Shown: piece by piece, positions 24,222-41,011 of the stretch
Layout of the letters: the number at the start of each line of letters is the position of its first letter
Position numbering within the stretch: position 1 is the first letter of the stretch
Assembly (NCBI GenBank): GCA_050177775.1
Contig: JBFXGS010000001.1
Span: 1 to 56,335 of the forward strand
Direction: 5' to 3'
Length of the DNA stretch: 56,335 bases
From: Bacilli bacterium
Lineage (GTDB): Bacteria > Bacillota_I > Bacilli_A > ML615J-28 > CAG-698
Notes under the pieces: generated by a model
Databases searched by the model: none
The model's input: the letters and a program-made list of their open reading frames with translations, nothing else
Told to the model about the DNA's origin: nothing
Program-made: the position numbers and the translations under genes

Positions 24222-24246
24222 TTAATCCGAATTCGGAGGTAAGTCA

Positions 24247-24885
24247 ATGTTAAACAGAGCACTTTTTGTTTTGGGGCGTTTATTTTTATTAAATGTCATA
24301 TATATTCTAACGGTTGCTTTTAGCCTAGGAATATTAGTTGCCCCGGCAACAAGTGCTCTTTTCTATTGTACAAAAGATTTACTAAACAAAGATACCAAGG
24401 AATATGGGTTTCTTAAGCAATATATGAATATCATAAAAACCAAATTTCGTTTTAGTTTTTGGTTCGGTTTAATGGCAGCCTTAATTCTTTATCTTTGTAT
24501 TGTTAATCTCGATAACGTGTTATTAATGAATTATCCTTCTTGGTTGTTAAAGACAATTGTCGTTTTCCAGTATATCATCATTGTTGAAACTTCTTTAATG
24601 ACCGTCATGGTTCTTTTTTTAAATGGTTTGTTTTTATTTTCTAAGTTTTCTGATTTGTTGAAAATGGCTTTTTTTATTCTTCATCGTCATTTTTTTACAA
24701 CCTTAATCATGGTTATTACCATTACCGTTTTAGTATATGTTTTTGTTTTTTATCTTAATGCCTTTTTGTTGCTGTTATTTTTTAGTGTCGTTTATCTTTG
24801 GATAAATTTATTATATTGGCCCATCGTTAATAAATACATTGTTAAGAAGGAGGAAAAACCAGAATATGAGCAAAAAGCCGAATAA
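24247..24885 (+). CDS. DUF624 (YesL-like) membrane protein
   Basis: 212 aa. N-terminal LNVIYILTVAFSLGILVAPATSALF pattern typical of YesL-family proteins in sugar ABC operons. Confidence 0.7.
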   Translation: MLNRALFVLGRLFLLNVIYILTVAFSLGILVAPATSALFYCTKDLLNKDTKEYGFLKQYMNIIKTKFRFSFWFGLMAALILYLCIVNLDNVLLMNYPSWLLKTIVVFQYIIIVETSLMTVMVLFLNGLFLFSKFSDLLKMAFFILHRHFFTTLIMVITITVLVYVFVFYLNAFLLLLFFSVVYLWINLLYWPIVNKYIVKKEEKPEYEQKAE

Positions 24886-25804: not shown

Positions 25805-25805
25805 T

Positions 25806-26672
25806 ATGCTTGAATCAAGGAATGATAAGATTTTTAGTATTATTGTTTACATCATATTATCGATATTTGGATTATCGATAACCCTTCCGTTCCTTAATTT
25901 ATTAGCAACATCGCTTTCGGATCAAGTCGCGGTATCGAACGGGAGTGTGTCTTTTTGGCCCAAAAATTTTACATTAAGTGCTTATCAATTTGTTATTCAA
26001 AATGAACAATTTTGGAACGGACTAAAGACGACCGTCTTTGTGACTTTTGTCGGAACCGGCTTAGCGATGGTCGTAACCACACTTGTTGCTTATCCGTTAA
26101 GTCTTCCTAAATTCCGTGTTCGCAAAATCTTTTTAATTATATTCATCATCGTGATGCTCTTCAATGGCGGGTTAATTCCCACCTATTTACTAATCAATCA
26201 AATTGGACTGAGAAATAATCGTTGGGCGCTCATATTGCCATCTTTGATTTCAACTTATAACATGTTGTTAATTAAAAATTATTTTGAAACTCTTCCCGAA
26301 GCTCTTTATGAATCGGCTAAAATTGATGGAGCTTCCGAATTTCAAATCTTTTTAAAAATCACTTTGCCGCTATCTTTACCGACGCTTGCTACGGTTGCTT
26401 TATTCTATGCGGTGGGTTTTTGGAATGCCTATGTTAATGGGATGCTCTATATTTCGACGCCAAGCAAAATGCCTTTGCAAACTTATTTACAAACGCTCTT
26501 AAATATGGCTTATATTCCGGCTCATGAATTATCTCCGGAAGTCGCAGAAAGCCTTTCAACGGAATCGATTCGTGCCGCCACCATTTTCTCAGCCACCATT
26601 CCTATTTTGATTTTATATCCTTTCTTACAAAAATATTTTGTGAAAGGATTAGTGTTGGGTTCGGATAAATAA
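25806..26672 (+). CDS. Sugar ABC transporter permease (LplC-like)
   Basis: EAA loop ESAKIDGASEFQIFLKITLP. Start at ATG 25806, immediately after the upstream stop. Confidence 0.9.
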   Translation: MLESRNDKIFSIIVYIILSIFGLSITLPFLNLLATSLSDQVAVSNGSVSFWPKNFTLSAYQFVIQNEQFWNGLKTTVFVTFVGTGLAMVVTTLVAYPLSLPKFRVRKIFLIIFIIVMLFNGGLIPTYLLINQIGLRNNRWALILPSLISTYNMLLIKNYFETLPEALYESAKIDGASEFQIFLKITLPLSLPTLATVALFYAVGFWNAYVNGMLYISTPSKMPLQTYLQTLLNMAYIPAHELSPEVAESLSTESIRAATIFSATIPILILYPFLQKYFVKGLVLGSDK

Positions 26673-27097
26673 TGAAAGATTCTTTGAAAATCTTTTTATT
26701 AAGGTCGTGGGTCATTGGAGTTGTGGTCGTGGTTGGGCATTTTATGATGAAATTACAGCACTTGTCGATTGGTCTTATTTTAGGAGTAATTAATACCTTT
26801 TTAGTAGACTTGGTTGTTTTAACGATTTTAAAAGGAAATCAAACCCACTTTCCGAAAGGTTGGAAATTGTTTTTACGAACAATTCTTAATATTGTGACCG
26901 CCATTGGTCTTAGTTTAATTATTCGCTTAATAGATTTAGCACTTTTAAATAAAGGTTTAATTACCATGCCCATTGAAACTTTTCGTTTTATTGCTTATTA
27001 CCAAGTAATGTATTATTTTGGTTTCTTTGTTTATAAAAAAATCTTGGTCATAATAGAGAGGAAAAAATATGAGTCGAATACTAACAAGCCTTCATAA
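26672..27097 (+). CDS. Small hypothetical membrane protein (about 4 TM)
   Basis: 141 aa, hydrophobic, with no recognisable motif. Its start overlaps the permease stop by 1 nt. Confidence 0.5.
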   Translation: MKDSLKIFLLRSWVIGVVVVVGHFMMKLQHLSIGLILGVINTFLVDLVVLTILKGNQTHFPKGWKLFLRTILNIVTAIGLSLIIRLIDLALLNKGLITMPIETFRFIAYYQVMYYFGFFVYKKILVIIERKKYESNTNKPS

Positions 27098-27761
27098 TAA
27101 GCCCATGACGTTAGTTGTCAGTTTACCCGAAAACACTTATGAGATGGCCAAAGCCGCATGGGAAGCGCAAGCAGATGCCATCAAAGTTCACATTAATCTT
27201 TTTCATAATGCCAGCCTTGTCAAGTTTGGTTCTTTAGAAGAACAACGACCGGTTTTAGAAAAAATAATTCACGATTCACCGGTTCCGGTCGGAATCGTTG
27301 CCGGCCAAGACACAAAAACAAGCGAAGCAGTCATTGAAGAACTTGTGAAAATGGGATTTGATTTTATATCTTTGTATGGTCATCATATGCCAGTCTCGTT
27401 AGTTAATCGTCGAGATGTTTCTAATTTATTTGCCATTGATTATAGTTATTCTTTAGAAGAAGTTAAAACCATTACCAATTCTTTTATTGCGGATATTTTA
27501 GAATTATCCATTCTACCTCATGAAGAATATGGACAAAGGTTAAATGCCCGCGATTTGAGTAGATACTTAGCGTTTTCACAAATATCAAGCATTCCAACGC
27601 TTCTTCCTTCACAGCGTTTACTTTTGCCTAGTGATGTAAACATGATTGCAAAATGCGGGGTGAAGGCGATTATGATTGGCGCAATCGTTTTTGGTCATGA
27701 TTTGGATCAAATGTCCAAACAAATAATGCAGTTTAAACAAGCCATCAATCAATTAAATTAA
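27069..27761 (+). CDS. Hypothetical cytoplasmic protein, possibly a (beta/alpha)8 phosphate-binding barrel
   Basis: 230 aa. Alternating beta-alpha pattern (LVVSLP, ADAIKVH, PVGIVAGQ, DFISLYG, ILELSIL, IPTLLPSQ, GVKAIMIGAIVFG), reminiscent of NanE/ribulose-phosphate-binding barrels. AGAGGAAAA RBS. Confidence 0.45.
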   Translation: MSRILTSLHNKPMTLVVSLPENTYEMAKAAWEAQADAIKVHINLFHNASLVKFGSLEEQRPVLEKIIHDSPVPVGIVAGQDTKTSEAVIEELVKMGFDFISLYGHHMPVSLVNRRDVSNLFAIDYSYSLEEVKTITNSFIADILELSILPHEEYGQRLNARDLSRYLAFSQISSIPTLLPSQRLLLPSDVNMIAKCGVKAIMIGAIVFGHDLDQMSKQIMQFKQAINQLN

Positions 27762-27774: not shown

Positions 27775-28737
27775 ATGTCACTTACTGTTTTAGCAATTCC
27801 AACTTATGATAGTCGGGCTTTCGATGTCCGCCGTTTTATTCATCCACCCATTTTTGATGGCATTATCGACCAAGAAAAAAAGCCGCCGCAACCACCCGCT
27901 TGCTTTTTAGGAGCATGGTATCGCAAGGTGTTTTCCTCGTTTGATTCTTGGTTGGGAATTGAGGGCGTGATTGAACTTGGTGAATTTACTCCCGATGAAG
28001 CGCGCTTTAATCTTGACGGTAAAGGGCGATACATGGATGTCCCAAGCATTTATATGGGGGGAAAAAGTGCATTCGAGAGTGATGCCGGACTGGGTTTAGG
28101 ACCAACATATTTAACAGGTGATTTTTCGGCGGAGTTGTCAGGCTCCAGTCCCAAAATGGCTTACCGCCCGTTTTGGCGTTTTATCTATCAAGATGCAATG
28201 GAAATATCTGGAAATGTAAAACGTCGCGAGATTAATTCATGGAATGTCTCGGATCCAAGAAGTGTTATCTATAACTACTTTCCCGGCGATGTTTTAAGAA
28301 TGAGCGTCTATAGTCCGATTAAGGATTATTTACAATTGCATATTGAAGTAATTAAAACAACAACCATTCCCAAATATGTGAACATTAGAAAACAATACCA
28401 TTTGGTAAATGATCGTCCCGATGATTTTTTTAGTCCCATCTTTTTATCAAAAGGACATGGGTACAAAGATGCAGAATTTAAAAGAGTCAATGCCATCGAT
28501 CAATTTGGCAATGAAGGATTTCACGCGAAACCGACGAAAGCCGAAGTATCAAAAGCGACTTGGCATGAAACCTATTTATATCGGATGCTAGATGGGGAAA
28601 TAAAAAGAGTTCCTTTTTCAAAAGCAAGACAAACAAGTATGATTTGTCCCAATGTGGAAGCGGTTAATGTTGAACTAATCAACCCAGATATGGGAAGCGA
28701 GGCCATAACCATTCAACCAGGTAAAATTAAGGGGTAA
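27775..28737 (+). CDS. Orphan 320-aa cytoplasmic protein, paralogue A (family unassigned)
   Basis: No signal peptide or TM helix. Roughly 60 percent identical by eye to the 35090-36052 product. GGGGGA RBS. Confidence 0.6.
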   Translation: MSLTVLAIPTYDSRAFDVRRFIHPPIFDGIIDQEKKPPQPPACFLGAWYRKVFSSFDSWLGIEGVIELGEFTPDEARFNLDGKGRYMDVPSIYMGGKSAFESDAGLGLGPTYLTGDFSAELSGSSPKMAYRPFWRFIYQDAMEISGNVKRREINSWNVSDPRSVIYNYFPGDVLRMSVYSPIKDYLQLHIEVIKTTTIPKYVNIRKQYHLVNDRPDDFFSPIFLSKGHGYKDAEFKRVNAIDQFGNEGFHAKPTKAEVSKATWHETYLYRMLDGEIKRVPFSKARQTSMICPNVEAVNVELINPDMGSEAITIQPGKIKG

Positions 28738-28751: not shown

Positions 28752-30455
28752 ATGAATTTTAATGAGAAAACTTATATCTGTAAAGATGTTTATACGATTG
28801 ACGGCATCTTAAACTTTATCGGAAAAATCCCCGTTGATATCAACGGGAGAACAGTCACTTATAAAATGTATGCCAATTATCATGAACTGTTAGACAAGAA
28901 TGTTTTTGAGATAAAAAGCCAAGGAATTCGTTTATATGTTCACTTTGATGAAAAAATAAAACCAGATGGTTATTCGATAAACATTACCACAGAAAATAAA
29001 ATAATCATTAAAGTCGCCAATAACCGCGGGATTCGTTATGCTTTTAAAATGCTCAATGACCTTGTGAAAAAAACAAAACAAGGTTTTACGCTTCCAATTA
29101 TCTTAATTGAAGATGAACCTTCTTTTTCGGTTAGAGGGATTGTGGAAGGATATTATGGGGAACCATGGACTTTAGATGAACATCTTGATATGGCTGATTT
29201 TATGGATCAATATCGGTTGAATGCGTTTATGTACGCTCCCAAAACAGATCCATATCATCGCGATAAATGGTTTGAATTATATCCGGATGATCTTTTTTCC
29301 ACGCTTTGTTCAGTGAAAGACAAATTAGAGAGTAAGGATATTGATTTCTATTATTGCATTTCACCAGGCCATGCCAAGAAACCTGAAGACGGATTTAAAT
29401 ATGTCGGTGATGAAGATTTCGAAAGACTGTTTAATAAATTAAGACAAGTTATCGACATTGGCGTCAATCACTTCGGTTTGTTCTTAGATGATATTGATTA
29501 TCAACTGAGCGGAGAAAACCAACGAATTTTTAAACGGCCGGGAATTGCTCATGCCCATATTTGCAATAAAGTATATGATTTCTTAAAGGAAAACGTCCTT
29601 GACCCAACTCTGGTTATGTGTCCAACCGAATATCATCAAATTGGTCAGACCGAATACCGCCATGATTTAAAAGAATATTTAGATGATGAAATTGTAGTGT
29701 TTTGGACAGGAGATCGGGTTTGTGCTGAAGCAATTACAGAAAATGAGGCTAAAGAAACATTAGAAGCCTATGAAAAACCTATTTTTATTTGGGACAATTT
29801 TCCTGTTAGTGATTTTACATATGGAGTTAGAGAGTTTATTGCTCCGATTAAGAATCGATCCGCTAACTTAGGAGCCTATGCCGAAGGGTTCTTTATTAAT
29901 CCAAGCCTTCATTATCATATTTCAAAAATGGGGATGATTACGATGGCTCATTATGCTTGGAATACTTCCCACTATGATCCGGAAAAATCTTTTGAAATAG
30001 CGCTTAATAGTGTAAGTCGAGAATTTGCAAATTTAGGTCAAGCTTATTTTAATTATAATTATCCAAATGTTCTCTCCCATGGAAACCTAGAAATGGAAAA
30101 ACAAATGGTTGAAAACCATGATTATCCCGCCATTATAAATTATATGCAAGATATGTCTAAGAGTGCAAAAGCTTTATTGACCCTTAAAGAACCTATAATT
30201 GATGAATTGAAACCATGGTTACAAAGAGCTGTGGAAGAAGAAATAATGGTGAAAAAAATAATAGAAGGAAAAATTGTTAAACAAGAGTTGTTGGCCTTTT
30301 TTGAAAACATCAAGTTTTCAGGCGGAAAAATCCTTGATTATTTAATCGCTGATTTAAAACTATTTAGTGATGAAGAATATAGCACGCTCATTGCCAAAAG
30401 AAGAGGTGGAGAATGGTACCGCGTTTTTGAATATAAACGTTGGTCCAACCATTAA
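28752..30455 (+). CDS. GH84 family beta-N-acetylglucosaminidase (O-GlcNAcase/NagJ-like), cytoplasmic
   Basis: 567 aa. Motifs RGIVEGYYGEPWT, YAPKTDPYHRDKW, FGLFLDDIDY (catalytic DD), CPTEYH, FWTGDRV and IWDNFPVSDF. No signal peptide. Confidence 0.85.
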   Translation: MNFNEKTYICKDVYTIDGILNFIGKIPVDINGRTVTYKMYANYHELLDKNVFEIKSQGIRLYVHFDEKIKPDGYSINITTENKIIIKVANNRGIRYAFKMLNDLVKKTKQGFTLPIILIEDEPSFSVRGIVEGYYGEPWTLDEHLDMADFMDQYRLNAFMYAPKTDPYHRDKWFELYPDDLFSTLCSVKDKLESKDIDFYYCISPGHAKKPEDGFKYVGDEDFERLFNKLRQVIDIGVNHFGLFLDDIDYQLSGENQRIFKRPGIAHAHICNKVYDFLKENVLDPTLVMCPTEYHQIGQTEYRHDLKEYLDDEIVVFWTGDRVCAEAITENEAKETLEAYEKPIFIWDNFPVSDFTYGVREFIAPIKNRSANLGAYAEGFFINPSLHYHISKMGMITMAHYAWNTSHYDPEKSFEIALNSVSREFANLGQAYFNYNYPNVLSHGNLEMEKQMVENHDYPAIINYMQDMSKSAKALLTLKEPIIDELKPWLQRAVEEEIMVKKIIEGKIVKQELLAFFENIKFSGGKILDYLIADLKLFSDEEYSTLIAKRRGGEWYRVFEYKRWSNH

Positions 30456-30464: not shown

Positions 30465-31133
30465 ATGATGATGGAAAAAATAAAAAATCAGTTAATTGTT
30501 TCTTGTCAAGCTAAAGATAATGAACCATTAAAAGATCCAATGATTATGGCAAAGATGGCAGCATCGGCACTACTTGGGGGAGCAAAAGGCATTAGGGCAG
30601 CGGGCGTTGAAGATATTAAAGCCATTAAAGCATTTAACGATACGCTTGTTATCGGTTTAATAAAACGAAATTACCCTGATTCTGAAGTTTACATTACACC
30701 AACCAAAGTTGAAGTTTTAAAGTTGGTTGAAAGTGGTTGTGAAATAATTGCTCTCGATGGAACAAATCGTCACCGCCCCAATCAAGAAACTTTGGTAAGT
30801 TTAATCGTATTAATCCATGCCAACAATCGTTTAGCCATGGCAGATATTTCAACATTTGAAGAAGCTTTAATGGCGCAACAAGCAGGTGCTGATTGTATTT
30901 CCACAACTTTATCGGGATACACAAGTTATTCAAAGCAACAAGCGGGGCCTGATTTAAAATTACTTAGTAAATGTGTTGCAAAATTACAAATACCCGTGAT
31001 TGCGGAAGGACGGATTCGTAACCCTCAAGATTTGAAACGCGTTTTAAAGAAAAAACCTTTTGCAGTTGTCATCGGAACAGCGATTACGAGACCTTCAGAA
31101 ATCACCAAAACATTTGTGGAGTGCTTCAAATGA
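30465..31133 (+). CDS. nanE: N-acetylmannosamine-6-phosphate 2-epimerase
   Basis: 222 aa with the NanE pattern (LIVSCQA..EPL, IALDGT, ADIST, TTLSGYT, IAEGRI, VVIGTAITRP). Confidence 0.88.
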   Translation: MMMEKIKNQLIVSCQAKDNEPLKDPMIMAKMAASALLGGAKGIRAAGVEDIKAIKAFNDTLVIGLIKRNYPDSEVYITPTKVEVLKLVESGCEIIALDGTNRHRPNQETLVSLIVLIHANNRLAMADISTFEEALMAQQAGADCISTTLSGYTSYSKQQAGPDLKLLSKCVAKLQIPVIAEGRIRNPQDLKRVLKKKPFAVVIGTAITRPSEITKTFVECFK

Positions 31134-32773
31134 ACCGAAAAACTATTGTAGATTCAACCCATGATATATTGGCTTTTTGGAATCGTGAATTTGCGAACAA
31201 CTATCCTATTTCCGAACGCTTATTTAAAGAAAAGATTCTTAATTCAAAGGAAGTTGCTTTGGACGGATCGTATTCACTATATGACCAGGAAGAGTATATT
31301 GGCAGCGTTATTCTAAAATTTAACCAAATTAATGATAAAAAGCTTCAAGATAATGCTTATATTTCCTTTTTATTTGTGAATCCCAAATTTCGTAACCGCG
31401 GGTATGGTTCCCTTTTTATCAGTGATGTAATTCGTATTTGTATTGAAAATGAAAAATCAATGCTATACGTCGGCGGAGACAATGATTGTTTATTTTCGGG
31501 TGTTTTTTTAGATAACAATGATTTCGTTCATCAATTTTTTAAGGACCATCGGTTTAACATTGCTTATAAAAATTATAACTTAATATGTAAAACCTCACCC
31601 CAAGTACCAAATGATGAATATGAATATTCCACTTTAAAAACAGAAGAAGAACGAAACGAATTATTAAAACAAGTTCGCAAATTGTTTCCATCGCGTTGGC
31701 ATTATGATATTCAGAATTGTGAGCCGCAAGCGTTCTTCGTTGCGAAAGAAAACAAGGTAATTGTCGGGTTCGTTCGGTTAAACACTCCGCTTTTTTCACA
31801 AATTGCCAATAGTGTTAATACTTACCCTTTGTACAAAATGCTGGGAGGGATTGGACCGGTAGCCATTTTTCCCGAGAAAAAAGGCTCGGAACTAGCCAAC
31901 AACATCGTAAAACAAGCCGTAAAACATTTGTTTGATTTGGGTTGTTCAGAGGTAATAGTTGACTGGACAAACTTTATTGATTTCTTCAAGCAATCAGGAT
32001 TTTCCAATGTATCTAACTCCTATGTTCTTTACGAGATGCGCATTCGTGAAAAAATAAAAGGACCAAAAACGCATATCTATCAAGTTATCGAAAATGATTT
32101 GCGGCATGAAATCCTTGAAGGAAAATATAAACACGGGGACATTATTCCAAGTGAGGTGGAATTAGCGGCCACGTATAAAGTGACGAGAATGACTGTTCGT
32201 CAAGCCATTAGTAATTTGCTAATTGACGGCTTTCTTTATCGACATAAAGGCCGCGGGACTTTTGTAACTTACAACAAGCGGAACATTGATTTTGAGGATA
32301 AACCTTTCTTTTCTTTCACAAATGATAAAAATAATAACGGGGAATTAAGAACGACGGTTTTACTCTTTGAAATTAGAGCCGCTGATGAATTATTAGCCTT
32401 ACGTTTACAACTAAAATTAGGGGATCCTCTCTATTATGTGGAAAGACTGACTGCCCTAGAAAATAAGCCGTTGCTATTTGAAAGACTTTATCTTCCTGCT
32501 AATATGTATAATAATTTAAGCGTTGAAGTCTTTCAAAAATCATTTTATGAATATGCAAAAAACGAATTGCATTGGAATTTACTTTCCTACAATATCCATA
32601 TTGAGGCCAGAGGATTAAGTGGTCGAGCTGCGGAAGTGTTGCAATTATCAACGGGAGATCCAACTCTTTATTGCAGCAGTGTGACTCATTTAGCGAATGG
32701 ACGCGCCATTCTTTATTCTCGAACTTTCTTCAATGCCGAACAAGTAAACTTTTCTCATCAATTTTCTTGTTAA
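31130..32773 (+). CDS. Fusion protein: tandem GNAT-like domains + GntR/HutC-family wHTH + UTRA effector domain
   Basis: N-terminal roughly 310 aa has two GNAT-like cores (FVNPKFRNRGYGSLF; GPVAIFPEKKGSELANNIV). This is followed by IYQVIENDLRHEILEGKYKHGDIIPSEVELAATYKVTRMTVRQAISNLLIDGFLYRHKGRGTFV and a UTRA-like C-terminus. ATGA overlap with the nanE stop. Confidence 0.8.
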   Translation: MNRKTIVDSTHDILAFWNREFANNYPISERLFKEKILNSKEVALDGSYSLYDQEEYIGSVILKFNQINDKKLQDNAYISFLFVNPKFRNRGYGSLFISDVIRICIENEKSMLYVGGDNDCLFSGVFLDNNDFVHQFFKDHRFNIAYKNYNLICKTSPQVPNDEYEYSTLKTEEERNELLKQVRKLFPSRWHYDIQNCEPQAFFVAKENKVIVGFVRLNTPLFSQIANSVNTYPLYKMLGGIGPVAIFPEKKGSELANNIVKQAVKHLFDLGCSEVIVDWTNFIDFFKQSGFSNVSNSYVLYEMRIREKIKGPKTHIYQVIENDLRHEILEGKYKHGDIIPSEVELAATYKVTRMTVRQAISNLLIDGFLYRHKGRGTFVTYNKRNIDFEDKPFFSFTNDKNNNGELRTTVLLFEIRAADELLALRLQLKLGDPLYYVERLTALENKPLLFERLYLPANMYNNLSVEVFQKSFYEYAKNELHWNLLSYNIHIEARGLSGRAAEVLQLSTGDPTLYCSSVTHLANGRAILYSRTFFNAEQVNFSHQFSC

Positions 32774-32775: not shown

Positions 32776-32798
32776 AGTGCCATTAAATGGCACTTTTT
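32776..32798 (+). terminator. Intrinsic terminator ending the first operon
   Basis: AGTGCCAT-TAA-ATGGCACT hairpin followed by TTTT. Confidence 0.75.
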
Positions 32799-32802
32799 CA
32801 AT

Positions 32803-32836
32803 TTGTATATACAAGTTATTTTTTAAATGGTATAAT
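32803..32836 (+). promoter_or_regulatory. Promoter of the second operon with a perfect 12-bp palindrome operator candidate
   Basis: TTGTATATACAA (32803-32814) is a perfect palindrome overlapping the -35 region. TATAAT lies at 32831-32836. Confidence 0.6.
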
Positions 32837-32855
32837 TAAAAAAAGGAAGAGAAAT

Positions 32856-35090
32856 ATGAGGAAAATTTTTATGGCTTTTTTGTTAGCAACGCTTTTATCC
32901 GGGGTTAGTATTAATGCCGAAACCACTGCCATTGTTGATGATTTTTTAAACGGGAAGGATGTGGTCCGCTATGAAAACTATTTGGTTTATTATAGTTTCA
33001 ATTCGACTTTAAAATCACCTGCAAACCAATGGGGATATGAAATTGCGGTTAGCAGTAATCACTTTGTGATTGATTGTGACACAAACGCAACCATGGAAAC
33101 AGGAGGATATATCATATCCGGGCATGGGACGAAAAAAACGACGTTGCAAAATGTCAAAGTTGGTGATCAAGTTAGTATCAATTGGGAAACTAAACAAATC
33201 GTGATTACGCGCGATAGTTTGAAAAGCCCGCAATTTTTAGCTCATCGTTTTAAAACAACCTCGGAAAACTATTACAATCAAGCAATCGAGGGCGGATATG
33301 ACTTTAACAGAACGCTTGTTGAACATATGCTTAATTTAAATGATAATGATTTACTGCAGATTGATGCCATCGTTGAAAAAGAAAGTCCCACAAGCAATGA
33401 AATTGATTTGGTTAAGATACTGGCTGATGGCATTGATGCTAGGATGCTATCCATCAAGTTTTTAACTTCTTTCTCTTCAACTACGGAAATTAGAGCTTTA
33501 TGGCATCGACCCAATGCGGCAGGCATTAAAGAGAACAACTTAGAAAATTTAAAGGCGTTTGTGCAAGAAGTAAAGGACCTTGGGTTTAATACCATTTTTG
33601 TGGAGACGCTTTGGAATGGATATGTCAGTTATCGGTCGGATATCATTGCTACGCATCCGCAAGTTGCTAATTTTACCTATGGTGAAGAATATAAAAACGA
33701 TTATATTGCGGCTTTAATTGGTGAAAGTCAAAAATTAGGCATTGATGTTCATGCTTGGTGCCACACCTTTAATGCGGGGAATGCAACCTACAAAGCCACT
33801 TCCATTAAAGATGAATGGTTATTGGAAGATTATCAAGGACTTACTTTACATCCAAATAGTTATGGAGGCAGTTATTATTTAGATCCATCTAATCCGGAGG
33901 TACTGACTTACTTGACAAGCGTTTTTTCGGAAATGGTTGAAAAATACGATTTTGCGGGAATTCAATTAGATTACATACGTTATTATGATAATAATTATTT
34001 ACAAACGCCGATTCGTGATAGTGGTTACGGATTACTCCCGGAAACACAATTTAAAACAGAATATTCATTAACCGGTGATGTTCGAACCCTCATTAAACAA
34101 AACACCTATTTGGAATTATGGAATGAATGGCGCCAAAACAATGTAACCAATGCTGTTCGAACTTTTTCTTCGGCTTTAAGAAGGCTTAATCCGCAGATCA
34201 TCATATCCGCGGATGTTGTTTCGAGTATCAATTATGCGAAAAGTACATATATGCAAGACTGGAAAACATGGGTTGAAAAAGGATACATTGATTTATTATG
34301 CCCAATGATTTATACCGGAAGTGCCGAAACTATTGAAAAAGACTCGTTAGCGATAATGAATCAAATAAAAAACCTTTCGTTTTTAGCTTCAGGGATTGCT
34401 CCAATTTATTATGGGCATTCGTTAGAAATCAATCATGATGAATTCGTCGCAACAAAAAGCGGCGATGGTTTAGCCTTTTTTGCAAGCCAAAACATCGTTG
34501 GATTAAGTGATGTTACTCAATCAATTAAAACAGGGGTTTTTAGAAACACGGCAGTATCTCCGCTTCGAGAAACCAAATTGGTTATCACAGAAGCTTTGTT
34601 GAACTTGAAAAGCTATGTTGAAAAGGCGATGGCGAATGAACCGCAACAATTAATGTTTTTAAACCATGTCGAAGAAATGATGACAATGAAGTGTGATAAC
34701 CCGGCTGATTATCAAGCCCTTATGGAAAAAATGATTTTTGTAAGAACGATAACTCCGTACATCTCTTCTTCTTCAATGCGAGAAATATTCTCACAAGAAT
34801 TAACTCAATTAATTCATATTCTTGATGTGAAAATAAGTCGAGAAATGATTGCTTATGGTTTTTATAACCCTGATGATGAAGAAAGGCCCAATCCGGATCA
34901 ATTTGATTACCCAATCGATAATCCAGAACCCGAACCTGAACCGAAACCCGAGCCGGAACCAGAACCGGAACCCGAGCCTGAACCAGAGCCGGATGAAGAA
35001 AAAGGTTGTTTTAAAGTGTTTTCGTTTCCTTCTGTTTTGCTTCTTGGATTAATTTTTATCTTTATTCGAAAAAAAGAAAGAGGTTATTAA
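32856..35090 (+). CDS. Secreted, C-terminally anchored GHL10 (DUF187/YngK-like) glycoside-hydrolase-like protein
   Basis: Signal peptide MRKIFMAFLLATLLSGVSINA. GHL10-like core RALWHRPNAAGIKENNLENLKAFVQEVKDLGFNTIFVETLWNGYVSY ... GIQLDYIRY. C-terminal PE repeat, KGC, TM helix and RKKERGY tail. Start trimmed to ATG 32856. Confidence 0.75.
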   Translation: MRKIFMAFLLATLLSGVSINAETTAIVDDFLNGKDVVRYENYLVYYSFNSTLKSPANQWGYEIAVSSNHFVIDCDTNATMETGGYIISGHGTKKTTLQNVKVGDQVSINWETKQIVITRDSLKSPQFLAHRFKTTSENYYNQAIEGGYDFNRTLVEHMLNLNDNDLLQIDAIVEKESPTSNEIDLVKILADGIDARMLSIKFLTSFSSTTEIRALWHRPNAAGIKENNLENLKAFVQEVKDLGFNTIFVETLWNGYVSYRSDIIATHPQVANFTYGEEYKNDYIAALIGESQKLGIDVHAWCHTFNAGNATYKATSIKDEWLLEDYQGLTLHPNSYGGSYYLDPSNPEVLTYLTSVFSEMVEKYDFAGIQLDYIRYYDNNYLQTPIRDSGYGLLPETQFKTEYSLTGDVRTLIKQNTYLELWNEWRQNNVTNAVRTFSSALRRLNPQIIISADVVSSINYAKSTYMQDWKTWVEKGYIDLLCPMIYTGSAETIEKDSLAIMNQIKNLSFLASGIAPIYYGHSLEINHDEFVATKSGDGLAFFASQNIVGLSDVTQSIKTGVFRNTAVSPLRETKLVITEALLNLKSYVEKAMANEPQQLMFLNHVEEMMTMKCDNPADYQALMEKMIFVRTITPYISSSSMREIFSQELTQLIHILDVKISREMIAYGFYNPDDEERPNPDQFDYPIDNPEPEPEPKPEPEPEPEPEPEPEPDEEKGCFKVFSFPSVLLLGLIFIFIRKKERGY
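34924..34992 (+). repeat. Imperfect GAACCN hexanucleotide repeat encoding a (Pro-Glu)n linker
   Basis: Encodes PEPEPEPKPEPEPEPEPEPEPEP. A similar tract lies at 39367-39420. Confidence 0.85.
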
Positions 35091-36052
35091 TGAGCTTAAC
35101 AATAAAAGTAATACCGACTTTAGACAGTCAATATGTCGATAGTCGCAAGTTTCAAAACGCCAAAATTTATTATGGAAGTATCGACAATGAAATAAAAGCT
35201 CCCATTTCACCAAAGTGTTTTTTAGGAGCTTGGTACCGAAAAGTTTTTTCATCCTTTGACTATTGGCTTGGAATAGAAGGAGTTATAAAACTGGGAGAAT
35301 TTATTCCTGACAAAGCCCGTTTTAATCTTGATGGAAAAGGCCGATTTATGGATAATCCTTCAATATATATGGGTGGAAAGAGCCAAAAAGAAAGCGATGC
35401 TGGCCTAAACTTAAATCTTTCTTATCTTTCGTTTGATACCAAAGATGATTTGCAATTATCTTCGCCTAAAGTGGCTTACCGTCCTTTTTGGCGTTACATT
35501 TACAATATGGCAACGGATGAAAGCGGAAATGTGGATCGTCATGAAGTTAATTCATGGAACGTTCATAATCCCCGTCATTTGGGAAATTATTATTTTCCGG
35601 GTGATGTAATTAAAATGAGCGTATTTAGTCCGTTGAGGGACTATTTACAATTGCGAATTGATGTCATCGAACCGACCAACAATCCTAAATATGTGAAAAT
35701 ACGCAATAATTACAATTTGGAAAACAATTTACCAACATCATTTTTAAGTCCGCTGTTCTTTTCCAAAGGACATGGTTACGAAAAAGCAGAATTTAAAAGA
35801 GTGAACTCCATTGACCAATATGGCAACGAAGGATTTGTTGCCCAAAATACTAATGCTGAAGTTACGGAGGCTCTGTGGCAAGAAGTGTATTTATATCGGG
35901 AGATTAATGGGGAGATTTGTAAAATACCTTTTTTACAAAATCGCCAAACATCCATGATTTGTCCAAATACAGATGCGATAACCGTAAGGAATCATCCTTT
36001 TGACCCAACTGGGGAAACCATACAAATTCATCCCGGGAAAATTAATCTTTAG
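35090..36052 (+). CDS. Orphan 320-aa cytoplasmic protein, paralogue B
   Basis: Same length and colinear blocks as 27775-28737 (CFLGAWYRKVFSSFD, WLGIEGVI, ARFNLDGKGR, SIYMGGKS, AYRPFWR, FPGDV..MSV, SKGHGY..AEFKRVN, RQTSMICPN). TAATG overlap with the upstream stop. Confidence 0.6.
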   Translation: MSLTIKVIPTLDSQYVDSRKFQNAKIYYGSIDNEIKAPISPKCFLGAWYRKVFSSFDYWLGIEGVIKLGEFIPDKARFNLDGKGRFMDNPSIYMGGKSQKESDAGLNLNLSYLSFDTKDDLQLSSPKVAYRPFWRYIYNMATDESGNVDRHEVNSWNVHNPRHLGNYYFPGDVIKMSVFSPLRDYLQLRIDVIEPTNNPKYVKIRNNYNLENNLPTSFLSPLFFSKGHGYEKAEFKRVNSIDQYGNEGFVAQNTNAEVTEALWQEVYLYREINGEICKIPFLQNRQTSMICPNTDAITVRNHPFDPTGETIQIHPGKINL

Positions 36053-36062
36053 GAGAAAAGGC

Positions 36063-37565
36063 ATGAAAAAAATTTTATATATTCCACTTGATGAACGCCC
36101 TTGTAATTATGATTTTCCGAAAAGTATTTTTACAAGTTCCTCATACTCCGTCATTGTTCCACCCATTAGTATCATGGGTGATAAAAAAAATCCGGCTGAC
36201 CATGAAGCTTTAGAAACCTTTTTACTTGAAGAATCAAAGGAAGCGGATGGTTTAGTTATTTCTCTTGACACATTAATTTATGGTGGAATTGTGCCTTCGA
36301 GGCTCCATTATTTGGAAGCCTCTGTTTTGAAAGAAAGGTTATTGTTTTTAAAGAAAATCAAGCTAATTCACCCCCATTTACCCGTTTTTGCTTTTCAACT
36401 TATTATGCGTTGTCCTCAAAACAATTCGAGCGATGAAGAACCGGAATACTATAAACATGCAGGTCGGAATATTTATCTGCAAGGTTATTTTCAAAACAAA
36501 CAACAACTTGGCCTTCTCAGCGTTGATGAAGAAAAAATTTGGAAGACCATCACCATTGAGGATGCTTATTTAAATGATTTTCTAAGTCGAAGAGCTTTGA
36601 ATAAGCAAATTAACATTTTTGCGCTTGATTTGTTAGAACAAGGGACAATTGATTTTTTGGTTGTTCCTCAAGATGATGCCAGTGAATTTGGTTACACGGC
36701 AATGGATCAAGTTGATATTAGATCGGTAATTCGCCAAAAGCAACTAATGCTTAAAGCTTATATGTATCCTGGGGCCGATGAAGTTGGATGTATTTTAATG
36801 AGTCGGATGATTAACCATTTAGAAAATAAAAAGCCGGCCGTGTTTGTGAAATACCCATCCCCGACCACCCCGATGGTAATTCCTTGTTTAGAAGATCGCT
36901 ATGTCGATGTAACCATCAAATACCATATTGCTTGTGCCGGAGGAATTACGGTTCCTTCGCTGAGTGATGCCGATATTGTTTTGCTTCCCTTTTTAGGGGC
37001 AACCAAAATGATACCACACCCGAATAATGAAGCCAGTTTAGATGTTGATGTTATGTGCAATTTTGTGGAAATGATGGAGTTTGCGGAATATGCCATTAAA
37101 AAAGGCTATCCGGTTGCTATTGCTGATTTAGTTTATTTAAATGGTGGTTCTTTAGATATCTTAAATTTTCTTGAAAGCAAAGGATTAACCATGAGGGTTG
37201 CCGCTTATGCGGGATGGAATACCTCAAGTAATGCTTTAGGAACAGCCATTGCTCAAGCTATGCAGTTTTGGCATCAAGGATCTACCAAACTTCACCAAAC
37301 ATTTCTCATCAAGAGGTATGTCGAAGACGTGGGGTATTGTGGAGTAGTGCGAGAGAATGTTACCAAACAACTGGCAAAATATGGTATGGATTACTTTAAT
37401 GTGAAAGAAAAAAGCGGGCTTGCCGCCGATCTTGTCAAACAAGAACTAAACTTGTTCATTGAAGAATATCTTCCAAGCATTTCTAACCGATTCGCTTTGG
37501 AGGATGTTAATCTGCCATGGCGTCGAATGTTTGAAGTTGATTTCCAAGTCGTTCTAAAGGATTAA
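36063..37565 (+). CDS. DUF4127 family protein, paralogue 2
   Basis: 500 aa from MKKILYIPLDERPCNY. AGGAGAAAAGG RBS. The track ORF starts upstream inside the previous gene. Confidence 0.65.
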   Translation: MKKILYIPLDERPCNYDFPKSIFTSSSYSVIVPPISIMGDKKNPADHEALETFLLEESKEADGLVISLDTLIYGGIVPSRLHYLEASVLKERLLFLKKIKLIHPHLPVFAFQLIMRCPQNNSSDEEPEYYKHAGRNIYLQGYFQNKQQLGLLSVDEEKIWKTITIEDAYLNDFLSRRALNKQINIFALDLLEQGTIDFLVVPQDDASEFGYTAMDQVDIRSVIRQKQLMLKAYMYPGADEVGCILMSRMINHLENKKPAVFVKYPSPTTPMVIPCLEDRYVDVTIKYHIACAGGITVPSLSDADIVLLPFLGATKMIPHPNNEASLDVDVMCNFVEMMEFAEYAIKKGYPVAIADLVYLNGGSLDILNFLESKGLTMRVAAYAGWNTSSNALGTAIAQAMQFWHQGSTKLHQTFLIKRYVEDVGYCGVVRENVTKQLAKYGMDYFNVKEKSGLAADLVKQELNLFIEEYLPSISNRFALEDVNLPWRRMFEVDFQVVLKD

Positions 37566-37566: not shown

Positions 37567-39507
37567 ATGAAAAAGTTAACGTTTATTCTTTGCTTTATTT
37601 TTGTTGTTTTGTTCTTTGTTTTTTTTAGAGTTAACACTTTTGCTCACTCGATGAGTGTTGAGAAAAATGACACGATTAAAAGTGGGACAGTTATACCAGG
37701 AATAACTTACGAAAGCTTTTCGGGAATGACAATAAATGATGCCCAAACCACCAGCAATCAAAGAATTAGTTGGGTGAAAAAATCCGCAAGTGCTCATGCG
37801 AAAATAGTTTCCTGGAGTAAACTAAAAGAAAACGGCATTGAAGGCGCGAACCTATTAAATCTGGCAAGTGATTTTGAGAGTAAAAATCCAGGATGGCGAG
37901 TGCTTGCCGGAATTAATGGGGACTATTACGACCCGACGACTAAAACGCCCGTGAATGCCCTTGTACAACAAGGTGATGTTGTAAAAGGAACAAACTTTAC
38001 ATTATCGAGATATTTTTCAATTGGCTTTAACGATGATAGCACTGGCTATGTAACATCGAAAACCAATGTTTTAGAAACAAAGTACGCTTTAACGATTTAT
38101 GATGAATCAAGGACTCGGGTTATTCTGGAAGTGGAACTTCAAGGATTAAACACGTATCCTAACAGCAAACAGACAAGTGTTTATTATAATAGTCAATATC
38201 CTTATCAAATTCCTAATGCCCGTTATTTTCGTGTAAATGATTTAGATTATGCCATCAATTACGGGTCTTATTTATTTAAAGGAAAAGTCAATGAAGAAGT
38301 AAATAATACCGAAACCCATTTAGGACAATTAGTGATCGCATCTTTAGATGAACGTGTTCAATATTTACTTGAAAAAAATCCATATATCCGGGTTCAAAAG
38401 CATTTAAAAGATGTCAATAACGGTTATGACAATATTATTGGAGTCGGAAGTCAACCTCTAAAAGATGGGACAATCTTAGAATTTTCCGAAATAAATGACC
38501 AAAATCTTGATTTCGCAAAACTTCGTGCACCGCGTTCTTCAATTGGCTTTACCCATGACGGCAGTTTTGTGATGGCTACCATGGATGGAAGGCAGTCGTT
38601 AATGGCCGGAGTTGACTTACGAGAAGAAGCCATGGTTATGGCATCTTTGGGGTGCCATCAAGCCTTTAATTTAGATGGTGGGGGATCAACCCAGTTAATT
38701 GTTCGAGAAAATGATCAATTGGTGATGTTAAACTCGCCTTCCGAAATCTATCGGAATAATGCCAATGGGGTTTTAATAGTGGAACCCGATGTTGATATTG
38801 AGGTTGACATTTCCCATTTATCTTTTTCATCGCTTGACTTACAATACTCTTTGGTGCCGCAAACCGGGGTGAATATTATAAGCCATTCTTTATATGCTAA
38901 TAATGTTCCGATAACAACGAGCCCAGAAACGATTACCATTGATTCTTTAATTTATTCGGGAATTAATTATTTGTCTTTGGTTGTGAAATACGAAAAACAA
39001 GGATTTATTTATGAACGATGTTTGTGGGTTGAACGAATAAATCTTGCTAATTATGGACTTGTTGAACCTATTGTTAAGGAAAAGCCCCATGATTTTACGG
39101 TTGTATTTGAAAAAGATGAAACTATCAAGGGCTTTACCGCGGTTATTAATTTTGATGATCCCGATAACACAATCACAAAACTTTATTTAGCATATGAAGG
39201 TAATGAAGAAATCGCCTTAAAAAGAATCAACGGGTATGAAGTCGATTTTTATAATGTTGAAAATAATTCATCTTTTTCTTTTTCGATTATTTATTATTAT
39301 CGAATTAACACGATAAATGCGGTATCGGAAACTTATGAAACTTTGTTTCCTTATGTTTATCAAGCGGAAACAGAGCCCGAGCCTGAACCTGAACCTGAAC
39401 CAAAACCAGAACCGGAAACTAAAGGTTGTTTATCTTGGGAAACACTATTACCTATTTCGCTTTTGATGTTAGGTTTTGGATGGTTTAAGAGGAGGAAACA
39501 TGAATAG
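37567..39507 (+). CDS. Secreted, C-terminally anchored phosphodiester glycosidase (NAGPA/DUF2233 domain) protein
   Basis: Signal peptide. Motifs GINGDYYD and RSSIGFTHDGSFVMATMDGRQ...GVDLREEAMVMASLGCHQAFNLDGGGSTQLIV, typical of the NAGPA domain. Also a C-terminal beta-rich region, PE repeat, KGC, TM helix and KRRKHE tail. Confidence 0.8.
   Translation: MKKLTFILCFIFVVLFFVFFRVNTFAHSMSVEKNDTIKSGTVIPGITYESFSGMTINDAQTTSNQRISWVKKSASAHAKIVSWSKLKENGIEGANLLNLASDFESKNPGWRVLAGINGDYYDPTTKTPVNALVQQGDVVKGTNFTLSRYFSIGFNDDSTGYVTSKTNVLETKYALTIYDESRTRVILEVELQGLNTYPNSKQTSVYYNSQYPYQIPNARYFRVNDLDYAINYGSYLFKGKVNEEVNNTETHLGQLVIASLDERVQYLLEKNPYIRVQKHLKDVNNGYDNIIGVGSQPLKDGTILEFSEINDQNLDFAKLRAPRSSIGFTHDGSFVMATMDGRQSLMAGVDLREEAMVMASLGCHQAFNLDGGGSTQLIVRENDQLVMLNSPSEIYRNNANGVLIVEPDVDIEVDISHLSFSSLDLQYSLVPQTGVNIISHSLYANNVPITTSPETITIDSLIYSGINYLSLVVKYEKQGFIYERCLWVERINLANYGLVEPIVKEKPHDFTVVFEKDETIKGFTAVINFDDPDNTITKLYLAYEGNEEIALKRINGYEVDFYNVENNSSFSFSIIYYYRINTINAVSETYETLFPYVYQAETEPEPEPEPEPKPEPETKGCLSWETLLPISLLMLGFGWFKRRKHE
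39367..39420 (+). repeat. Imperfect GAACCN hexanucleotide repeat encoding a (Pro-Glu)n linker
   Basis: Encodes ETEPEPEPEPEPKPEPET, immediately before AAAGGTTGT (KGC). Confidence 0.85.
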
Positions 39508-41011
39508 AATCATTTATGTTCCCCTTGATGAACGTCCCTGTAATTATCGATTTCCTTTTCAAATATTTAATCAAAAAAACACGGAAATAATTACTTGTCC
39601 AGAACATTTGATGGGTTATAAAAAGCGACCGGCCCAAATCAACCAACTTAATGAATGGTTAATGATCAATACTAAGCATGCTTATGGTTTGGTTGTTGCC
39701 CTAGATACACTTATTTATGGAGGAATTGTACCCTCACGACTCCATAATTTGCCTTTAGATGTGTTAATAAGTCGATTAACTATTTTAAGAAGTTTGAAAA
39801 AACAAAATCCTAATTTGATTATATATGGATTTTCCTTAATTATGCGATGCCCCGAGTATAATTCTGCCGATGAAGAACCGGAATACTTTCAAAACCACGG
39901 AAAAAACATTCACCTTTTGGGTTATTTGTCCCACATGAAAGAATTAAACATTCTTAGTAAATCCGATCAAGAAAAACTTGATAATATCCAAATCCCCAAG
40001 GAATACATCGATGATTTTTCACATCGTCGTTATGTTAACCAACAAATTAATATCGCTGCATTAGAGCTTGTGAAAGAAGAAATCATTACCTTTTTCACAA
40101 TTCCTCAAGATGATTCTTCAAAGTATGGTTGGACGGCCAAAGATCAAATCAAGATTAGAGAGGTTATAAAAAAACATAAACTGTTTAAGAAAGTTTTTAT
40201 GTATCCTGGTGCGGATGAAGCTGGTTGTGTTTTACTCAGTCGAATGGTTTGTCTTAACAATCATCTTCAACCGAAAGTATATATTAAATACCCCGGTCCC
40301 ACTTGTTCGAAAATAATCCCCTCCATCGAAGATCGCTATTTGGATACGATGGTAAAATACCACATTATTGCTTGTGGCGGGATAGTAGTTGATGCTTTAA
40401 AGGAATGTGATGCGGTTTTATTGATCAATGCTCCTGCAGATTACATGCGCTCCTCATTTAATAAAGAAGAACCCGGCCGGGGACTGGAAGTTCAGAGAAA
40501 CCTTGTTGAAGCCATCGAGTTTATTGAATACGTGGGCCAAAAACAAAAAGCCATTATTATTGGCGATATTACTTATGGAAATGGCAGTGATTTAGAAATT
40601 TATCATTATTTATCTTTAAAGAAAATGCTTTTTAAACTGGCGGGTTTTGGAGGATGGAACACAGCTTCCAACAGTATCGGGCAAGCCATCGCCATGGGTT
40701 TTTCGTGCTTGCTAAACGGGTTTACCAAACAACATTTAGCTTTTTTAATCAGCCGCTATGTTGAAGATATCGGTTATTGTGGTTATGTTCGTCAAACAAT
40801 TATGAAGGACTTTTTGCCTAGACATCCTCAGTTAAACTATTTCGATGTAAAAAGCAAAGCCGGAATCGTCGCAACAGAAGTTAAGGATCAATTAAAGTTG
40901 TTTGTACAAACCAAAATGCCTGATTTATGGCCCCACATTATTATTAAGAAAGTTGAATTACCTTGGAAACGCATGTACGAAATCGATTTAGAGGTTGAAT
41001 ATCGACCCTAA
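39500..41011 (+). CDS. DUF4127 family protein, paralogue 3
   Basis: 503 aa from MNRIIYVPLDERPCNY. AGGAGGA RBS. 8-nt overlap with the upstream gene. Roughly 45-50 percent identical by eye to paralogue 2. Confidence 0.65.
   Translation: MNRIIYVPLDERPCNYRFPFQIFNQKNTEIITCPEHLMGYKKRPAQINQLNEWLMINTKHAYGLVVALDTLIYGGIVPSRLHNLPLDVLISRLTILRSLKKQNPNLIIYGFSLIMRCPEYNSADEEPEYFQNHGKNIHLLGYLSHMKELNILSKSDQEKLDNIQIPKEYIDDFSHRRYVNQQINIAALELVKEEIITFFTIPQDDSSKYGWTAKDQIKIREVIKKHKLFKKVFMYPGADEAGCVLLSRMVCLNNHLQPKVYIKYPGPTCSKIIPSIEDRYLDTMVKYHIIACGGIVVDALKECDAVLLINAPADYMRSSFNKEEPGRGLEVQRNLVEAIEFIEYVGQKQKAIIIGDITYGNGSDLEIYHYLSLKKMLFKLAGFGGWNTASNSIGQAIAMGFSCLLNGFTKQHLAFLISRYVEDIGYCGYVRQTIMKDFLPRHPQLNYFDVKSKAGIVATEVKDQLKLFVQTKMPDLWPHIIIKKVELPWKRMYEIDLEVEYRP

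Follow-up and report, generated by a model that had tools for sequence, protein, structure and literature searches.

DUF4127 and an Unnamed Protein Family Very Probably Share a Pathway in Amino-Sugar Scavenging Clusters of Wall-Less Acholeplasma-Like Bacteria

The window analyzed here is a stretch of 56,335 nucleotides (nt) from a Bacilli bacterium (GenBank assembly GCA_050177775.1, contig JBFXGS010000001.1, positions 1 to 56,335 of the forward strand). It carries an island, from 21.0 to ~54 kb, in which two uncharacterized protein families are present in several copies: a protein of 320 amino acids (aa), which we call the orphan after the first-pass annotation of this DNA, and DUF4127 (PF13552). 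DUF4127 is a large family without function, literature, or solved structural relative, and the orphan family is in no domain database. The two very probably act in one pathway, recurring in amino-sugar glycan-scavenging clusters of wall-less Acholeplasma-like bacteria.

Results

Gene Content and Organization of the Island

Housekeeping genes precede the island, and an NHL/TPR protein and Yip1 lie at its far end (Table 1). The junctions around orphan B are tight. The TAA stop codon of the GHL10 gene (35088–35090) shares one base with the ATG of orphan B at 35090 (TTATTAATGAGC, TAATG), and the TAG of orphan B (36050–36052) is followed after a 10-nt gap (TAGGAGAAAAGGCATG) by the ATG of DUF4127-2 at 36063. 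This gene has its own ribosome-binding site, GGAG, which overlaps the orphan B stop 7 nt ahead of the ATG. The first-pass annotation had described both junctions in these terms, and the sequence agrees. It had also placed orphan A and the divergent DUF4127-1 about 5 kb apart; the distance is 5.3 kb, with DUF4127-1 upstream and on the minus strand. Its count of two copies for each family holds for the two orphans and for DUF4127-1 and DUF4127-2, but it did not list a third DUF4127 (39500–41011), the ATG of which overlaps the stop of the NAGPA gene by 8 nt and is preceded by an AGGAGG site that lies within NAGPA. All three DUF4127 copies cover the full length of the Pfam model (positions ~1–489, cutoff of 27 bits).

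According to the translations, GHL10 and NAGPA have a signal peptide and a C-terminal anchor. There is no leader on the DUF4127 copies, GH84, NanE, or the window orphans, and the N-termini of orphans A and B (MSLTIKVIPTLDS and MSLTVLAIPTYDS) are without a hydrophobic leader.

The transcription signals are weak and suggest two operons plus a monocistronic, divergent DUF4127-1. The first operon appears to comprise the ATP-binding cassette (ABC) importer, orf230, orphan A, GH84, NanE, and the GNAT/GntR regulator; a 141-aa membrane protein sits between the importer 1 permeases and orf230. The second appears to comprise the anchored GHL10, orphan B, DUF4127-2, the anchored NAGPA, DUF4127-3, the giant surface protein, and the second importer. 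The best promoter-like site of the scan (22565–22593) is ahead of importer 1. Terminator-like hairpins were found behind DUF4127-1 (21005–20981) and, with a T-run, between the GNAT/GntR regulator and GHL10 (32776–32794). The latter hairpin is followed by a promoter-like site at 32808–32836, and both overlap the annotated start of GHL10. Translation of this gene probably begins instead at the internal Met at ~32856, the first residue of the signal peptide MRKIFMAFLL.. A scan of the window for Rfam families and tRNA found none.

Table 1. Features of the island, with positions in the window, strand, and the matches or remarks on which each assignment is based
Feature	Position	Strand	Matches and remarks
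DUF4127-1	21026–22492	-	PF13552 337.7 bits; clade I; divergent from ABC operon; monocistronic
ABC importer 1 (lipoprotein solute-binding protein, DUF624 membrane protein, two permeases)	22677–26672	+	Pfam SBP_bac_1, DUF624, BPD_transp_1
orf230	27069–27761	+	no Pfam match; weak likeness to NanE/ribulose-phosphate epimerase
Orphan A, 320 aa, cytoplasmic	27775–28737	+	62% identity to orphan B; no Pfam/NCBIfam match
GH84 beta-N-acetylglucosaminidase, no signal peptide	28752–30455	+	PF07555 285 bits
NanE, N-acetylmannosamine-6-phosphate 2-epimerase	30465–31133	+	PF04131 199.7 bits
GNAT domains fused to GntR/UTRA regulator	31121–32773	+	Pfam UTRA, GntR, Acetyltransf_1
GHL10, secreted, membrane-anchored, 767 aa, homolog of the Cwp19 catalytic domain	32787–35090	+	PF02638 118.2 bits, residues 234–523
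Orphan B, 320 aa, cytoplasmic	35090–36052	+	TAATG overlap with GHL10; translationally coupled; AlphaFold2 model
DUF4127-2, clade III	36063–37565	+	PF13552 476.6 bits; tree placement
NAGPA-type phosphodiester glycosidase, secreted, membrane-anchored	37567–39507	+	PF09992 98.4 bits
DUF4127-3	39500–41011	+	PF13552 482.5 bits; 46% identity to DUF4127-2
Surface protein, 1793 aa	41104–46485	+	faint Ig-like Pfam matches; three C-terminal 185-aa repeats
ABC importer 2 (DUF624, 973-aa solute-binding protein, two permeases)	46554–52046	+	Pfam matches

Distribution of the Orphan Family

The name orphan does not fit the 320-aa protein, as it has hundreds of homologs elsewhere and belongs to a conserved family without a name. 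A word-indexed search returned 247 homologs, every one annotated as hypothetical, and an exhaustive HMMER scan identified 226 representatives among 1.84 billion. The sources are mostly Acholeplasmatales, Izemoplasmatales, and Haloplasmatales; named carriers include Acholeplasma laidlawii, A. granularum, Haploplasma axanthum, Haloplasmataceae, Izemoplasmatales, and many "Bacilli" metagenome-assembled genomes (MAGs). Pfam places the orphan in no family, even with E ≤ 10 over 44 close and 74 distant members, and neither does NCBIfam. A sequence profile search of the PDB gave 0 matches, and a second profile search, with the superfamily alignment, recovered only the orphan family itself.

The family has two forms: the cytoplasmic protein of ~320 aa, as in the window, and lipoproteins of the cell surface, which have Ig-like domains at the N-terminus. 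Tails of the type IX secretion system (T9SS) occur in rarer forms. One of these forms, P0273 (997 aa), has an N-terminal orphan-family domain fused to NAGPA, and one distant relative of the orphan has a PG_binding_1 domain. In the Bacteroidota contig L088 (919–6163), two T9SS-tailed NAGPA proteins, of which one is P0273, lie beside a GH92 alpha-mannosidase and DUF5107. The contexts of stand-alone homologs (gut Clostridia-like contigs, Sumerlaeia, and others) provided no functional clue.

Co-Occurrence of the Orphan with DUF4127

Using the orphan alone, 85 loci were retrieved and annotated by tblastn with the window proteins and the proteins of annotated loci. Dereplication at 90% identity left 83 orphan clusters, 30 of them with at least 5 kb on each side. 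DUF4127 lies within 5 kb of the orphan in 22 of these 30 loci, the highest count among the families tested; the others are GntR (14), NanE (13), the GDSL esterase (12), NAGPA (10), and the PF12831 flavoprotein (10). By our estimate, a family with few copies in a genome of 1–2 Mb would fall within 5 kb of the orphan by chance in only a few percent of cases. The link between the two families that the first-pass annotation proposed from this one genome is therefore found outside it as well. The gene directly downstream of the orphan is DUF4127 in 12 cases, NanE in 10, GH84 in 9, and GntR in 9; directly upstream are the PF12831 flavoprotein (12), GHL10 (10), and orf230 (4), and never DUF4127.

Four layouts can be recognized. 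The commonest is GHL10-orphan-GH84-DUF4127-NAGPA-surface protein. The second, in Haploplasma axanthum and Acholeplasma hippikon, starts with a solute-binding protein (SBP) followed by a lipoprotein orphan, DUF4127, esterase(s), the flavoprotein, a cytoplasmic orphan, and NanE, in some cases with GH20. The third is GDSL-orf230-DUF4127-flavoprotein-like gene-orphan, and the fourth is that of the window.

A reverse survey of five loci seeded by DUF4127 gave a different picture, as four of the five lack the orphan and only the Acholeplasma locus has it. The Paenibacillus locus reads SBP-permeases-DUF4127-RpiR-flavoprotein, and those of Neobacillus and Heyndrickxia read RpiR-DUF624-GHL10-SBP-permeases-(GH84)-DUF4127-esterase-NanE-ROK-flavoprotein(-GH20). 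A locus of a "Bacilli" MAG (L091) contains ROK, AXE1, the flavoprotein, GHL10, GH84, DUF4127, again GHL10 and DUF4127, a secreted GDPD, a surface protein, DUF624, and an SBP. Because the Bacillales and MAG loci are without the orphan, DUF4127 and the flavoprotein form the general core and the orphan is a lineage-restricted addition. The dependence of the two families is not mutual, as there are DUF4127 genes without the orphan in Bacillales and lipoprotein orphans without DUF4127. Hence, the linkage is one of a larger conserved gene set, and not of an exclusive pair. This wider set includes GHL10, GH84/GH20, NanE, NAGPA, the PF12831 flavoprotein, esterases, ROK, GntR/RpiR, and ABC importers.

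The partner found most constantly with DUF4127, in Bacillales and in Acholeplasmatales (loci L086, L087, L090, L091, L092, and L009), is the PF12831 FAD-dependent oxidoreductase, which may be the key to the chemistry of DUF4127.

Tight gaps between the orphan and DUF4127, both in the window and in its relatives L001–L005, could reflect an obligate heteromeric complex, which would explain adjacency and translational coupling; adjacent pairs are also always in the order orphan then DUF4127 (12 versus 0). Yet, in the Acholeplasma-type loci the orphan that precedes DUF4127 has the signal peptide and lipobox of a lipoprotein together with an Ig-like domain, and DUF4127 has no signal peptide, so that the two would be in different compartments. 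Furthermore, GH84 intervenes in the commonest layout, the Bacillales DUF4127 have no orphan within 10 kb, and orphan A is 5 kb from DUF4127-1 on the opposite strand. An obligate complex is thus very unlikely. The first-pass annotation had suggested that the families work together, either in a complex or in consecutive steps. Co-occurrence and matched clades (see following) favor a common pathway, and lipoprotein orphans beside a cytoplasmic DUF4127 speak against the complex.

Unequal Divergence of the Paralogs

Orphans A and B align without gaps (E 4e-149), with an identity that far exceeds the 24% between DUF4127-1 and DUF4127-2. The neighbor-joining tree of DUF4127, built without support values as was that of the orphan, shows three deep clades. 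Clade I contains DUF4127-1 and usually has orf230 directly upstream. Clade II contains the proteins of Bacillales and Acholeplasma, with a lipoprotein orphan upstream in the Acholeplasma loci and none in the Bacillales loci. Clade III contains DUF4127-2, which is orthologous to the gene of the commonest layout, and, as a separate branch, DUF4127-3, which always follows NAGPA. The three clades are each paired with a different orphan subfamily, and this is good evidence of a lasting functional tie.

Orphans A and B, on the other hand, nest together in a single clade, that of the commonest layout (GHL10>>GH84.DUF4127). Orphan A retains GH84 downstream, and its orthologs keep the orf230>>GH84 context; orphan B retains GHL10 upstream and DUF4127 downstream. 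Orphans A and B are thus recent paralogs, whereas DUF4127-1 and DUF4127-2 separated anciently. This fits a scenario in which the orphan alone, or a GHL10-orphan-GH84 segment followed by reciprocal loss, was duplicated recently next to DUF4127 paralogs that are much older.

The first-pass annotation had instead proposed that the island grew by duplication of a two-gene orphan-DUF4127 module, followed by subfunctionalization. Both families are indeed multicopy, and orphans A and B are clear paralogs that are both kept in L001, L002, L004, L010, and L011. If the module had been copied as such, one would expect congruent trees and a similar divergence of its two genes. Instead, the identities are very unequal (62% versus 24%), the orphans belong to one clade, and the DUF4127 copies belong to separate deep clades with contexts of their own; elsewhere, the clade of DUF4127-1 accompanies orf230, the flavoprotein, and another orphan subfamily that is absent from the window. 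Module duplication is therefore very unlikely. Old DUF4127 paralogs were each joined by their own orphan subfamily, and the two-gene module was not copied.

Fold and Conserved Residues of the Orphan

The AlphaFold2 model of the orphan is all-beta (pLDDT 95.2, pTM 0.92), and its predicted fold is a concanavalin-like beta-sandwich. In the PDB, Foldseek matches it best to G1 glutamic peptidases and to YncM-like proteins (8xai, 4hfs, 2ifr, and 1s2b; E 9e-8 to 3e-6, probability 1.00, TM 0.61–0.67 normalized to the target). The next matches are neprosin, the di-glutamate glycopeptidase HC7 (PMC13003899), GH16 glucanases, and the PL28 ulvan lyase, with galectins matching weakly. Among close relatives, 52 columns are invariant, with many Asp, Glu, Arg, Lys, and Gln. 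Throughout the superfamily, a polar core is maintained (K51, D74, R77, D88, Y93, E101, D103, R131, R135, K236, R237, D242, Q243, and E247), in which E101 and D103 probably alternate along one strand. The abundance of basic residues suggests an anionic ligand.

The ranking of these matches raises the possibility of a glutamic-peptidase-type orphan, which as an amidase or (glyco)peptidase would remove the peptide from imported muropeptides or from O-GlcNAc glycopeptides, with DUF4127 acting on the freed sugar. The adjacency of the orphan to GH84 and GHL10 and the Bacillales loci without the orphan also count for this, as do two relatives, one with PG_binding_1 and one with a weak Peptidase_A4 match. 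Moreover, wall-less lineages have, to our knowledge, no housekeeping muropeptide amidases. The G1 peptidases (scytalidoglutamic peptidase, 1s2b/2ifr, and aspergilloglutamic peptidase) and the YncM-like proteins of B. subtilis (4hfs, 8xai) have the two-sheet concanavalin-like sandwich in common with the orphan. However, the window orphans are cytoplasmic, without signal peptide or propeptide, whereas G1 peptidases are acid proteases that are secreted; the orphans are also ~115 residues longer, and what they show instead is an invariant Glu-x-Asp strand along with many invariant Arg/Lys.

Sequence comparisons likewise gave no significant relation. None of the 44 close relatives matches PF01828 (Peptidase_A4) at E ≤ 10, and one of the 74 distant ones does so at E 0.004. 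A comparison with scytalidoglutamic peptidase by hhalign gave a probability of 1%, and hmmsearch gave E > 0.1 (E ≥ 0.2 with a hidden Markov model of the scytalido- and aspergilloglutamic peptidases). Short motif matches between the orphan and scytalidoglutamic peptidase (WLGIEG/WVGIDG, GDVIKMSV/GDSIQMSV, and AEFKRVN/AEFIIED versus AWYRK../AWYEW..) are mutually inconsistent, and no alignment of the Gln53/Glu136 dyad could be drawn from them. Three collinear motif matches had been considered as anchors of G1 homology and were dropped, as HMMER gave a conflicting register.

The same fold is also used by GH16 and other beta-jelly-roll glycoside hydrolases and by PL28-type lyases, and these match too (1zm1, 3h0o, and 6d3u). 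The alternating acids of E101-S-D103 resemble the GH16 catalytic strand, and a carbohydrate-active genomic setting is common to both. Yet, these matches have lower TM values (0.27–0.48), the orphan has no match to a CAZy-type family, and the GH16 motif E-x-D-x(x)-E (ExDxxE) is incomplete, as the strand reads E101-S-D103-A-G105-L with G105 invariant superfamily-wide. Taken together, we regard the peptidase reading as rather unlikely.

A concanavalin- or galectin-like fold, with galectins among the weak Foldseek matches, could also be that of a noncatalytic carbohydrate-binding (lectin-like) or sensor protein. Genes for surface lipoproteins that directly follow SBP genes, as those of accessory glycan-binding proteins do, are common among the relatives, and in P0273 the domain is fused to a catalytic NAGPA. 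On the other hand, the best conserved forms, with the 52 invariant columns, are the stand-alone cytoplasmic ones of 320 aa, and a cytoplasmic lectin would be unusual in a catabolic operon. The polar core is also kept from Firmicutes to distant phyla. A lectin or sensor role is accordingly improbable. Within the pathway proposed below, the orphan is most likely a hydrolase or a lyase acting on an anionic N-acetylhexosamine (HexNAc) conjugate.

Fold and Conserved Residues of DUF4127

DUF4127 has more than 2354 homologs (clusters at 90% identity), including proteins of Acholeplasmatales, Paenibacillus, Neobacillus, and Heyndrickxia. The AlphaFold2 model of DUF4127-2 (pLDDT 95.7) shows alternating beta and alpha elements. 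Foldseek found no real neighbor in the PDB, the best hits being xylose isomerase and GH35 with TM ~0.2 and rmsd ~19 Å. Taken as no match, this result loosely suggests an alpha/beta repeat architecture. A profile search of the PDB gave 0 matches, and there is no secondary Pfam signal. The alignment has 36 invariant columns, among them D10, R12, C14, N15, D69, R80, R116, Q203, D205, D239, E277-D278-R279, D355, W385-N386, and R418. To the Pfam description of DUF4127, the present data add conserved partners (the PF12831 flavoprotein, NanE/orf230, GHL10, GH84/GH20, esterases, and the ABC importer), three deep clades, and the absence of a solved structural relative.

Other Genes of the Island

The tails of GHL10 (..PEPEPDEEKGCFKVFSFPSVLLLGLIFIFIRKKERGY; 34917–35087) and NAGPA (..EPKPEPETKGCLSWETLLPISLLMLGFGWFKRRKHE; 39367–39504) are alike, both being made of an acidic (Pro-Glu)n linker, Gly-Cys, a hydrophobic helix, and a basic end. 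Their layout is reminiscent of PEP-CTERM/MYXO-CTERM sorting signals, and no NCBIfam model matched them.

The GHL10 domain, a recurrent partner of both families, is that of Cwp19 of Clostridioides difficile, where it is a peptidoglycan lytic transglycosylase (PMC6016235). Cwp19 has CWB2 repeats, whereas the window GHL10 is anchored by a C-terminal transmembrane tail. As the host of the window has no cell wall, its GHL10 would have a nutritional role, and not an autolytic one. In L091, a secreted gene with Ig-like and GDPD domains (15442–16530) occupies the position of the window NAGPA. GDPD in this place hints that the target polymer contains phosphodiesters, like teichoic acids.

The product of orf230 has 24% identity over 127 aa to the window NanE and a weak match to 3inp, and its collinear resemblance to NanE and to ribulose-phosphate 3-epimerase is only weak. 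In other loci, orf230 is directly upstream of clade I DUF4127; in the window, the ABC operon separates it from DUF4127-1. The region of ~310 aa with GNAT domains that is N-terminal to GntR/UTRA makes an unusual fusion, and related loci often match it at two adjacent places. The surface protein contains three tandem repeats of 555 nt (185 aa; 44817–46226) and is conserved downstream of GHL10-orphan-DUF4127-NAGPA clusters in many relatives; importer 2 follows it in L010, L020, and L091 too. The SBP of this importer (47209–50130) has its SBP domain from about residue 590, and its long N-terminal part is unannotated.

Discussion

We propose that the orphan and DUF4127 are separate cytoplasmic enzymes of one HexNAc-glycan catabolic system, being neither a complex nor a co-duplicated module, and we put the probability of this at about 0.65. 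From gene content, synteny, co-occurrence, folds, and conserved residues, we infer the substrate, the order of the steps, and the chemistry of both proteins as follows. At the surface, the GHL10 homolog and the NAGPA-type phosphodiester glycosidase would fragment an external polymer, for which the leading candidate is wall material from other bacteria, namely peptidoglycan carrying phosphodiester-linked polymers of N-acetylglucosamine (GlcNAc) and N-acetylmannosamine (ManNAc). The ABC systems would import the fragments, and the cytoplasmic GH84 would take off terminal beta-GlcNAc. The orphan, a beta-sandwich with an invariant Glu101-x-Asp103 strand and a cluster of invariant Arg/Lys, would then cleave an anionic HexNAc conjugate, at a glycosidic or at an amide/peptide bond. 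DUF4127, an alpha/beta protein in which Cys14, several Asp, and seven Arg are invariant, most likely works on the sugar ahead of the epimerase step, and would make from the orphan's product what a sugar-phosphate 2-epimerase, either NanE or the NanE-like orf230, takes as its substrate. This epimerase would supply the metabolism of GlcNAc-6-P.

NAGPA-type enzymes cleave GlcNAc-1-phosphodiesters, as the human enzyme does; NanE implies ManNAc-6-P, and GH84 and GH20 remove beta-GlcNAc. The esterases of the clusters may remove O-acyl groups. Taken together, GHL10 (Cwp19), NAGPA, GDPD, NanE, GH84/GH20, and esterases fit the scavenging of wall material. That the substrate is Gram-positive wall material (peptidoglycan with phosphodiester-linked ManNAc-GlcNAc polymers) taken up by wall-less carriers is plausible, at somewhat less than even odds. 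The PG_binding_1 domain of a distant orphan relative and the fusion with NAGPA in P0273 are further hints of a link with cell walls.

The main alternative to a wall substrate is a host or eukaryotic glycan, such as sialoglycans, mucin, or N-glycans with phosphodiester-capped mannose, the orphan and DUF4127 then processing the ManNAc/GlcNAc product. NanE, ROK, RpiR, and the GDSL (GxDLY) esterase are classic parts of nan clusters, and GH84 and GH20 are common in loci for host glycans. The sole characterized activity of NAGPA known to us is the uncovering of GlcNAc-1-P-6-Man, and the orphan-NAGPA fusion lies beside a GH92 alpha-mannosidase. The nan/nag clusters of Firmicutes have NanE, GntR/UTRA or RpiR, a ROK kinase, a GDSL esterase, and an ABC importer with DUF624 in common with the wider gene set described here. 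However, no surveyed locus has a sialidase or a NanA lyase; in their place the clusters contain DUF4127, the PF12831 flavoprotein, and the orphan. In addition, several of the sources are MAGs from metagenomes and not host-associated isolates, and GHL10 and GDPD indicate polymers of the cell wall. Hence, we consider host glycans an unlikely target.

Several observations weigh against the proposal that the orphan and DUF4127 are successive enzymes of one HexNAc pathway. The lipoprotein orphans of gut Clostridia-like contigs are in unrelated contexts without DUF4127, and short orphan forms in other phyla stand alone, so the domain does not always depend on DUF4127. The window has neither the PF12831 flavoprotein nor the ROK kinase, which accompany DUF4127 elsewhere, and the pathway may therefore differ among loci. 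The conservation of DUF4127 is enzyme-like, but its chemistry cannot be read from its residues or structure, and the likeness of the orphan to glutamic peptidases is at the level of the fold only. A literature search found no paper that mentions DUF4127, and no account of the cluster came up under the NAGPA domain, under PF12831, or under NanE, GH84, and peptidoglycan combined. The trees carry no support values, and the two-operon reading is only suggestive because promoter and terminator counts in the window are not above those of shuffled controls. As for the substrate, we know of only one GHL10 enzyme with an established specificity, Cwp19, and the nan-type signature of the clusters fits foraging on sialoglycans or mucin.

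One may speculate further that the orphan and DUF4127, usually with the PF12831 flavoprotein, form the catalytic core of an undescribed route from imported, wall-derived amino sugars to ManNAc-6-P/GlcNAc-6-P that dispenses with MurQ, AnmK, and NanA. Its inputs would be fragments containing N-acetylmuramic acid or ManNAc, possibly phosphorylated after uncovering of a phosphodiester. We consider this extension unlikely. If it were true, both proteins would found new enzyme families, the fold of DUF4127 would be new to the PDB, and the wall-less relatives of Acholeplasma and Izemoplasma would consume the walls of other bacteria by this route.

In conclusion, the amino-sugar gene set supplies concrete, testable substrates for two uncharacterized families, and it points to a possible way for wall-less Mollicutes-like bacteria to scavenge HexNAc polymers, which might be the cell walls of neighboring bacteria.

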